Assembly (NCBI GenBank): GCA_963822405.1
Contig: CAWGHH010000001.1
Span: 151,296-215,295 of the forward strand
Source: Candidatus Uhrbacteria bacterium
Lineage (GTDB): Bacteria; Patescibacteriota; Patescibacteriia; UBA9934
Direction: 5' to 3'
DNA: 64,000 nt
In this document: positions 61,525 through 61,611 of the stretch, piece after piece
Layout: each line of letters begins with the position of its first letter
Position numbering within the stretch: the stretch's first letter is position 1
Made by a program: the position numbers and the translations under genes
Notes under the pieces: model-generated
Databases searched by the model: none
What the model saw: only the letters and a program-made list of their open reading frames with translations
Told to the model about the DNA's origin: nothing

Positions 61525-61611
61525 GACAAACAAAATACCCAGTGTTGTCGAGAAATTTTTAGGAGGTAATCCGACTCAAATTTCGAGGCAACACTGGGTA
61601 TTTTGTTTGTC
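61525..61611. repeat. Nested-hairpin element copy 2: perfect 23-bp inverted repeat around the same core
   Basis: Arms gacaaacaaaatacccagtgttg / caacactgggtattttgtttgtc; core tcgagaaatttttaggaggtaatccgactcaaatttcgagg; 37 nt identical to copy 1; right arm abuts the cca stop. Confidence 0.7.

Follow-up and report, generated by a model that had tools for sequence, protein, structure and literature searches.

The window, i.e. the complete 64-kb stretch of contig CAWGHH010000001.1 analysed here, encodes an isoleucyl-tRNA synthetase (IleRS), an extracytoplasmic function (ECF) sigma factor, a CCA-adding enzyme and tRNAs at a GC content of about 0.49, which identifies it as bacterial chromosome. The closest named homologues of the CCA-adding enzyme come from metagenome-assembled genomes (MAGs) of Patescibacteria, the candidate phyla radiation (CPR). 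Two long hairpins in the window, at 18947–19034 (copy 1) and 61525–61611 (copy 2), share a core that resembles, depending on the strand, a Shine–Dalgarno (SD) sequence or the anti-SD sequence at the 3′ end of 16S rRNA. They belong to a dispersed repeat with an invariant apex and covarying stems, found, in public data, only in one Patescibacteria clade.

The two hairpins of the window

Copy 2 occupies the gap between the stop codons of two convergent genes. The gene at 60748–61512 (+) encodes a protein of 254 amino acids without Pfam match, lies directly 3′ of the ECF sigma factor gene (60177–60746) and is a conserved neighbour of the element in relatives. The gene at 61612–62940 (−) encodes a tRNA nucleotidyltransferase (CCA-adding or poly(A) polymerase head domain), and this CCA gene served to find orthologous loci in relatives. 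The whole hairpin, folded on the + strand, corresponds to inverted repeat I3 with 34-nt arms, 91% complementary. The 5′ arm of its outer stem (61525–61549, +; GACAAACAAAATACCCAGTGTTGTC) is locus-specific, contains an A-tract and pairs with the 3′ arm (61587–61611, +; GGCAACACTGGGTATTTTGTTTGTC), which contains a T-tract; together, both arms have the layout of a bidirectional intrinsic terminator. The outer arm at 61525–61549 is orthologous to the outer arms at the relatives' loci L017, L011 and L023, and unrelated to that of copy 1. Enclosed by the arms is a shared 37-nt module (61550–61586, +), composed of GA, the inner stem strand GAAATTT, a 19-nt apex, AAATTTC and GA, with 100% identity to copy 1 and a model score of 71.2 bits. 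The apex (TTAGGAGGTAATCCGACTC) covers 61559–61577 (+), and its first 14 nt are SD-like and complementary to the 16S tail. The minimum free energy (MFE) of copy 2 was −55.9 kcal mol−1 for the SD-like + strand vs. −45.1 kcal mol−1 for the other strand.

Copy 1, inverted repeat I5, is folded with its SD-like sequence on the − strand and lies between the convergent open reading frames (ORFs) 18468–18950 (+) and 19031–20038 (−). Its outer arms, GTAGAAAATAAAAACAGACTAGT and ACTAGTCTGTTTTTATTTTCTAC, are symmetric and hold the stop codons of both genes (TAG at 18948–18950, CTA at 19031–19033). The MFE was −45.2 kcal mol−1 for the SD-like strand vs. −42.3 kcal mol−1, with a model score of 62.7 bits. Its 19-nt apex is found at 18981–18999 (−), where the + strand reads GAGTCGGATTACCTCCTAA. 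In both window copies, an A-tract is present in the 5′ outer arm and a T-tract in the 3′ outer arm.

The 14-mer under study, TTAGGAGGTAATCC (61559–61572, + strand), was found exactly at two sites of the window, 61559 (+) and 18986–18999 (−), while about 0.23 matches would be expected with up to 2 mismatches allowed. The two sites share 37 identical nucleotides (18972–19008 and 61550–61586) in inverted orientation (I1), and each 37-nt core is centred in its long inverted repeat with outer arms unrelated between the sites. The complement of the 14-mer, GGATTACCTCCTAA, differs from the E. coli 16S 3′ end GGATCACCTCCTTA at 2 of 14 positions; the host tail may differ from that of E. coli. The 12/14 resemblance to the 16S 3′ terminus reported in the initial annotation is thus real, and its coordinates and sequence are as described there. 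Also borne out were the absence of a start codon within reach of AGGAGG (no ATG, GTG or TTG follows within the core) and the position of both window copies between convergent genes, past their stop codons. The same two features speak against a functional SD site in the window. From the gene layout, transcription of both strands at the window copies is plausible. Matches of 12/14 to the 16S tail are expected by chance about 0.3–0.4 times in 64 kb, and an unrelated one occurs at 60713. The prior probability of such a match within this particular 19-nt loop is about 4 × 10−5, for a motif that was chosen after the sequence had been seen.

Members of the family and their hosts

Altogether, 12 copies from at least 5 related CPR genomes were in hand: the two of the window and those at loci L017, L011, L023, L002, L003, L004, L005, L007, L008 and L021. 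Six of them (L002, L003, L004, L005, L007 and L008, all from MAG CAYGEQ01) were retrieved by an exact search for the 19-mer; L017, L011, L023 and L021 were retrieved by synteny and fuzzy matching and hence without selection for an exact loop. L017, L011 and L023 are orthologues of window copy 2, located downstream of the CCA gene, and L021 is the orthologue of L007.

In the genome collection (GTDB), CAYGEQ01 was the only genome with genuine copies of the loop. Its record is labelled "uncultured Gammaproteobacteria". The SecY protein of CAYGEQ01 is 88–90% identical to proteins from the sample of the window organism and from a Patescibacteria MAG, and its best named matches are Patescibacteria and Uhrbacteria, so that the label is probably wrong. 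Judged by these protein comparisons, all hosts of the hairpin repeat belong to one CPR clade.

The search of the metagenome collection with the 19-mer returned only two matches (L009 and L010), both chance occurrences in coding sequence, and that of the viral collection none. L009 and L010, together with L006 from the genome scan, were rejected as copies: none is flanked by stems, and all three are coding, with LGGNPT as the translation. The pattern of the stems alone, GAGAAATTT-N16-CTCAAATTTCGA, had 0 matches in the genome contig collection. The exact inner stem is specific to the window organism and L017. A covariance model (R1) was built from the 12 copies and applied, with its filters disabled, to about 230 kb of sequence from these genomes. 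The copies scored 56–74 bits and everything else below 18 bits. Diverged copies were looked for in the same ∼230 kb by fuzzy matching (up to 5–6 mismatches) in addition to R1, with nothing found between 18 and 56 bits; it follows from this gap that the family has no halo of copies with degenerate loops. With Rfam 15 at the gathering threshold, only tRNAs were detected in the window and the loci, and the element matched no family. At a relaxed threshold, its only matches were to generic hairpin models of microRNA precursors, with scores far short of the respective cut-offs.

Invariant apex and covarying stems

Each copy is built in layers, from the 19-nt apex UUAGGAGGUAAUCCGACUC through an inner stem and, usually, a tandem G·A step to the outer stems. 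The inner stem has 7 bp (5 bp in L003) and varies in sequence by compensatory substitutions, and the outer stems are either common to a subfamily or unique to the locus. The apex is identical in 10 of the 12 copies, the exceptions being C19→G in L017 and A11→C in L023. Pairing probabilities were computed for an apical mini-hairpin, predicted to consist of AG, tandem GA, GG, a UAAU loop, CC, GA and CU; both substituted positions, 11 and 19, are unpaired in it.

In a 47-column alignment of the copies, 95.8% of the cells were paired, with 11 pairs altered on both sides. The covariation score was 0.648 vs. 0.216 in shuffled alignments (0 of 500 reached it), and slid controls gave at most 0.21. Mean pairwise divergence of the apex was 1.8%, as opposed to 48% for the stems. 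Synteny orthologues display the same distribution: window copy 2 differs from L011 at 0 of 19 apex positions and 16 of 28 stem positions, and from L023 at 1 of 19 and 15 of 28, respectively, with CCA proteins of the window and L023 that are only 63% identical. The pentamer GACTC, i.e. the 5 nt outside the 16S-like 14-mer, is as invariant as the remainder of the apex. On this comparative evidence, the entire apex including GACTC is judged to be under purifying selection. The positions of CCTCC, the free variation of which would have counted as a refutation in the initial annotation, never vary among the 12 copies from several species, so that this refuting condition did not arise; a stricter conservation of the CCTCCT hexamer than of the rest of the loop was not found, as all 19 positions are conserved save the single changes at positions 11 and 19.

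The folded strand

Both strands were folded for 11 copies, and the SD-like strand was the more stable one in all 11, by about 3–16 kcal mol−1. It contains 20 G·U pairs, compared to 2 on the other strand, as well as the G·A steps; the opposite strand has A·C and C·U mismatches in place of G·U and G·A. By this modelling, selection for structure acts on the SD-like strand, be it in the form of RNA or of single-stranded DNA. Since the folding asymmetry is carried by the SD-like strand (G·U 20:2, stability 11/11), a mimic of the anti-SD sequence is disfavoured, and with it that half of the initial annotation, the folded strand being the SD-like and not the anti-SD-like one.

Genomic contexts, copying and flipping

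The element is 45–90 nt long, with an apparent density of about 1 per 20–30 kb. Convergent gene junctions account for 5 of 8 independent loci (both window copies, L002, L004 and L003). At the window copies, L002 and L004 the module tips a locus-specific, terminator-like outer hairpin, and in L003 it adjoins a separate terminator. By eye, the order A-tract, stem and T-tract was recognised at both window copies, L017, L011, L023, L002 and L004; it is not present in L003, L005, L007, L021 and L008. A terminator scan made no call at copy 2, because it admits loops of 3–8 nt only. The window sites are, as inferred from their layout, most likely very long bidirectional terminators that also provide a stable 3′-end hairpin.

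The remaining contexts are of other kinds. In L005, co-directional genes flank the element, and its SD-like strand is in mRNA sense. In L007 and L021, it separates adk from map in a secY-adk-map operon, to which the SD-like strand is antisense; in L019, a more distant relative, the adk–map spacer measures 30 nt and is empty. The orientation relative to host transcription is mixed among the copies. A dependence of orientation on replication was rejected as well, as the window copies have opposite orientations, yet GC skew is uniformly positive there. Likewise rejected were a small RNA gene with its own promoter, for no sigma70-like site is found upstream of the SD-like strand in L007, L021 and the window, and a kink-turn, for the tandem G·A steps lack the 3-nt bulge geometry (hand check).

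Signs of copying are seen at several loci. About 89 nt are common to L005 and L007 at unrelated loci, and L002 and L004 have a common inner module with unrelated outer stems, as have the window copies with their 37 nt. Relative to the CCA gene, window copy 2 is flipped compared to its orthologues in L017, L011 and L023. The simplest cause of such an in-place flip is probably recombination between the perfectly palindromic outer arms. Logan contig L001, which stems from the window organism, breaks off inside the copy 2 hairpin, as expected for a contig end in a repeat; the element thus breaks short-read assemblies. No convincing direct repeats that could represent a target-site duplication were present at the borders of the copies inspected. 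Terminal inverted repeats common to all copies were also not found, the outer arms being common only within L005, L007 and L021 and partly L008.

The copy inside riboflavin synthase

In L008, the element is located in frame within the riboflavin synthase gene (L008:3405–4085, −). Compared to E. coli RibE (PDB 1i8d), the encoded protein has an insertion at residues 155–179, the flanks of which align to RibE residues 1–151 and 156–198; these 25 extra residues, DQNVHENLLGGNPTPNFQEHSGRRF, are encoded by the element. A homologous ribE insert exists in P0239, and its loop peptide LGGTPT implies that the A11→C change of L023 is present there too; L023 and P0239 possibly come from one genome. Shorter inserts at the same RibE site occur in P0242–P0246 and may be remnants of the element. 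The insert is absent from P0240 and P0241, the closest relatives of the L008 protein outside the insert. An apparent CGAAGA repeat at the ribE insert was rejected as a target-site duplication, since it would delimit a 70-nt unit that breaks the frame. Separately, a second variable site of riboflavin synthase was noted near residue 55 among L008 and its homologues P0239–P0249, where P0244, P0246 and P0249 have 10–25 extra residues; these may be other inserted elements.

SD usage and 16S tails in the clade

SD usage was examined at 107 called gene starts from close relatives, ribosomal protein operons included (L011, L013, L014, L017, L019 and L021). A 4-mer SD core was present at −20 to −4 in 16 of them (15%) vs. 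12% of random 17-mers, and ribosomal protein genes were likewise without SD enrichment. Within the window, AGGAGG is neither enriched nor depleted. Many gene starts are preceded by a TAnnnT box 7–12 nt 5′ of the ATG, a sequence pattern that points to leaderless mRNAs. As the clade shows no SD enrichment, and hence no sign of initiation by SD pairing, an SD decoy or a sponge for SD-containing mRNAs is left without an obvious client. The proposal in the initial annotation that the 3′ untranslated regions (UTRs) display a ribosome or mRNA sponge or an SD decoy could thus not be upheld, in view of the SD core frequencies (15% vs. 12%) and of the copies antisense to an operon and within a gene, which a 3′-UTR sponge does not predict.

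No rRNA was detected in the window, including its start of 60% GC, or in any locus. The sequence GATTACCTCCTAA is a natural 13-nt 16S tail recorded for 87 taxids (PMC6107228, Table 2). The apex is a perfect 14-nt complement of GATTACCTCCTAA with its preceding G; the tail of the host may differ. The predicted duplex energy of the apex was −23.8 kcal mol−1 with a tail of the GATTACCTCCTAA type and −17.9 kcal mol−1 with the common tail, compared to −12.2 kcal mol−1 for a strong SD and −3.1 kcal mol−1 for the apex's own mini-hairpin. Among the CPR tails on record are some that end in CTAA or contain GATTACC. For Parcubacteria, only 48% of the 16S genes are reported to have a recognisable anti-SD motif (PMC9297842).

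Relation to known elements

Repetitive extragenic palindromic (REP) sequences, their REPIN assemblies and the associated RAYT proteins of Enterobacteria and Pseudomonas offer a close comparison in behaviour. REPs are short imperfect palindromes, mostly extragenic and often at gene 3′ ends or convergent junctions; they occur in both orientations, persist at orthologous loci, are recognised as a hairpin of one strand and can be 3′-end barriers or terminators. The present element resembles them as a mostly extragenic palindrome in both orientations with orthologous persistence and a one-strand hairpin. It differs in that REPs conserve the stem and a 5′ GTAG and leave the loop free, whereas here the loop is invariant and the stems are 48% divergent and covary. 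Further differences are that no RAYT (Y1 HUH transposase) gene was seen in non-exhaustive Pfam scans and that the copy density appears low, about 1 per 20–30 kb.

Another precedent is STAB-SD of the Bacillus cryIIIA mRNA, an SD-like sequence without start codon that was proposed to pair with the 16S tail and so to stabilise the mRNA. The likeness, taken by analogy, would extend to the SD-like sequence without start codon and the proposed 16S pairing. STAB-SD counters 5′-to-3′ decay from a position near the 5′ end, in an organism that uses SD pairing, whereas the present motif is found at the tip of a hairpin, for the most part at 3′ ends, and its lineage shows no SD enrichment. In chloroplast spacers, the loop between short inverted repeats flips between related genomes with the arms staying put. 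The flipped window copy, compared to L017, L011 and L023, is alike; the chloroplast case differs in being a mutational process only, from which nothing follows about function.

[quoted passage not shown] Rickettsia palindromic elements (RPEs) are palindromes of reduced genomes that reside in intergenic regions and also in frame in genes without destroying the proteins (PMC10969869). The riboflavin synthase insert shows the same in-frame insertion in an intact gene, a likeness of behaviour and not of homology. In contrast to RPEs, which are about 100–150 bp long, form ten sequence families and have many coding insertions, only 1 of 8 loci is coding here, the element measures 45–90 nt, and it has no sequence similarity to RPEs and belongs to another phylum. 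Dispersed small hairpin repeats are described as intergenic, stably folded, able to insert into one another and a source of terminator-like structures (PMC10969869). Compared to these, the A-tract and T-tract of the present element belong to the locus-specific outer stems and not to the repeated module, there are no terminal inverted repeats common to all copies, and no target-site duplication was seen. In the literature, no paper describing such an element in Patescibacteria was found. As a dispersed palindromic repeat, the element is of a known kind; its architecture is reversed, with a conserved loop and covarying stems.

Interpretation

With roughly even confidence, we regard the element as a palindromic repeat of the REP, RPE or SPRITE type whose apex is read on one strand by a trans-acting factor, most likely a protein. 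A repeat is argued for by the subfamilies at unrelated loci, the preference for terminator tips, presence and absence among relatives, the coding insertion, the flipping and the assembly breaks. A trans-acting reader of the SD-like strand is argued for because the apex is invariant, the stems drift and only one strand folds well. As the loci show, the module has been copied to unrelated places and is mostly settled harmlessly at the tips of bidirectional terminator hairpins; it can also flip in place, and it has entered an operon and, with the frame kept, a protein-coding gene, in the manner of REP, RPE and SPRITE elements. According to our model, a trans-acting factor would recognise the apex and read the SD-like strand as a single-stranded nucleic acid. 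A protein would be the most economical choice, be it an RNA-binding protein or an enzyme acting on single-stranded DNA to mobilise or maintain the element. The SD and anti-SD look would be incidental, with AGGAGG forming one strand of a purine-rich helix AGGAGG/CCGACU with tandem G·A pairs. A handle of a mobile or domesticated repeat is more likely than a ribosome sponge.

Several points weigh against this interpretation. The loop identity of 6 of the 12 copies is built in, because they were retrieved with the exact 19-mer. The apex is unchanged in old orthologues, though the CCA enzymes are only 63–83% identical across species, and the purifying selection that this implies is not predicted for a purely selfish, decaying repeat. 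Conservation of the loop instead of the stems is the reverse of REPs and MITEs. No transposase was present among the Pfam-scanned ORFs (64 kb plus ∼170 kb of loci) in a non-exhaustive screen, and neither a parent element nor a target-site duplication was found for the repeat. Finally, the perfect 14-nt complementarity to a natural 16S tail variant would have to be left as coincidence.

That complementarity is what a hairpin for docking of 30S subunits would explain. Here, the SD-like RNA apex would pair with the free 16S 3′ tail over up to 14 nt and tether ribosomes or 30S subunits to 3′ UTRs or terminator fragments, for 3′-end protection, storage or anti-SD titration; the tail sequence that would favour it is GGAUUACCUCCUAA. 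The folded strand is indeed the SD-like one, its 14-nt stretch matches the tail complement at 12/14 positions for E. coli and 14/14 for GATTACCTCCTAA with the preceding G, and CPR tails with a CTAA end or GATTACC are on record. A duplex of −17.9 to −23.8 kcal mol−1 would outweigh the −3.1 kcal mol−1 of the mini-hairpin, and the prior chance of a match in this loop is low (∼4 × 10−5). In addition, the apex is under strong purifying selection, most copies are placed so that one of two convergent genes would transcribe the SD-like strand, and the motif would be free for such use in a lineage that no longer initiates by SD pairing. However, the equally invariant GACTC matches no helix 45 sequence of CPR or other bacteria, and A11→C, the sole internal loop variant, loses a pair with any of the listed tails. 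The SD-like strand of L007/L021 and L003 is antisense to the only evident transcription, with no promoter-like site found, one copy is within a coding sequence, and about half of Parcubacteria lack the anti-SD motif (PMC9297842). Docking in this form is unlikely, and so is the fuller, joint claim that the apex is a dedicated dock for the 16S tail, by which a few dozen stable hairpins with a perfect 14-nt complement on display would capture or titrate 30S subunits after the loss of SD usage in a CPR lineage with a retained anti-SD, the repeat being a domesticated ribosome-binding RNA module and the antisense copies tail mimics. Should pairing between apex and 16S tail prove real, this would be the first SD:anti-SD interaction reused beyond start-site selection in a lineage without SD-led initiation.

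Reading the opposite strand, GAGUCGGAUUACCUCCUAA, as the active RNA would make the element an imitation of the 16S tail that sequesters SD-containing mRNAs or else anti-SD-binding or anti-SD-cleaving factors. The match of 12/14, or 14/14 for the natural variant, would fit, as would the adk–map and CTP synthase contexts, which carry the anti-SD-like strand in the mRNA. This strand folds worse in every copy compared and has A·C and C·U mismatches, gene starts without SD enrichment offer nothing obvious to sponge, and the nucleotides upstream do not continue helix 45, all of which makes such a mimic highly improbable. Ordinary bidirectional intrinsic terminators with a functionless loop, their shared core resulting from recent duplication or gene conversion, would account for the A-tract/stem/T-tract hairpins between convergent genes at the window copies, L017, L011, L023, L002 and L004, and a nested terminator that lacks the module exists at another convergent junction of the window. 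This explanation nevertheless appears improbable: the apex is fixed while the adjacent stems of orthologues diverge by half, contrary to what recent copying or conversion predicts, and L005, L007/L021, L008 and L003 have no T-tract and lie within an operon or a gene or beside a separate terminator. Comparably improbable is a site that functions at the DNA level, at which a nucleoid, replication or recombination protein, for example, would bind the asymmetric 19-bp core as double strand or cruciform, with the inverted repeats aiding extrusion. An orientation independent of transcription and, within the window, of GC skew would agree with this, and so would the copies inside a gene and inside an operon; the G·U/G·A strand asymmetry, however, is meaningless for double-stranded DNA, and the stems covary instead of holding a fixed sequence.

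For the repeat with a one-strand reader, as favoured above, the combination of a conserved loop and free stems reverses the usual logic of REPs and MITEs and points to a factor that reads the loop. To our knowledge, CPR genomes are very small, are not usually associated with families of repeats and have been recovered almost exclusively by metagenomics. The presence of a dispersed hairpin repeat would offer a new handle on the maintenance and expression of such genomes.

Other repeats and features

Further repeats were observed in the window and the related loci. Seven copies of another hairpin repeat, GGGCCGACATCGAAGTCGGCCC(TTACTA) (D1, D7, I2, I4 and I6), lie at 10787–14657 of the window, several of them at gene boundaries and some as inverted pairs in the manner of REPs and REPINs. 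A third hairpin repeat, CCCCC(T)AA(A)CCCCCTCCAC-TTCG-GTGGAGGGGG, was found at L018 5608–5656 and at L021 5358–5400 and 6927–6975, i.e. after secY and map in two relatives, and Logan contig L018 ends just past it. The region after map in L021 (6927–7375) is GC-rich and non-coding over about 450 nt, with several strong hairpins and no Rfam match at the gathering threshold.

At the convergent junction 48632–49304 of the window, a nested bidirectional terminator without the module is located at 49250–49295 (AATAGCACTTTTT ... CCCTT-TTGTC-AAGGG ... AAAAAGTGCTATT). This genome thus makes a general habit of nesting its terminator hairpins. Repeat D3 (31116–31147, 32445–32476, 36984–37015 and 47182–47213) reads TTGACA-N17-TATAAT as its reverse complement. 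These sites are near-consensus sigma70 promoters on the − strand, and the clade thus uses canonical promoters.

The first 4000 nt of the window form an island of 60% GC in a genome of 45–51% GC, without Rfam match. A 94-nt direct repeat (3053–3146 and 3561–3654, 86% identical) is present there, the − strand of which ends in AAGGAGG, and weak hairpin matches were noted at 2733–2806, 4142–4212 and 4285–4351. Two tRNA-Ile genes with the anticodon UAU are located at 31338–31411 and 58657–58733, the first of which scored only 40.5 bits with Rfam.

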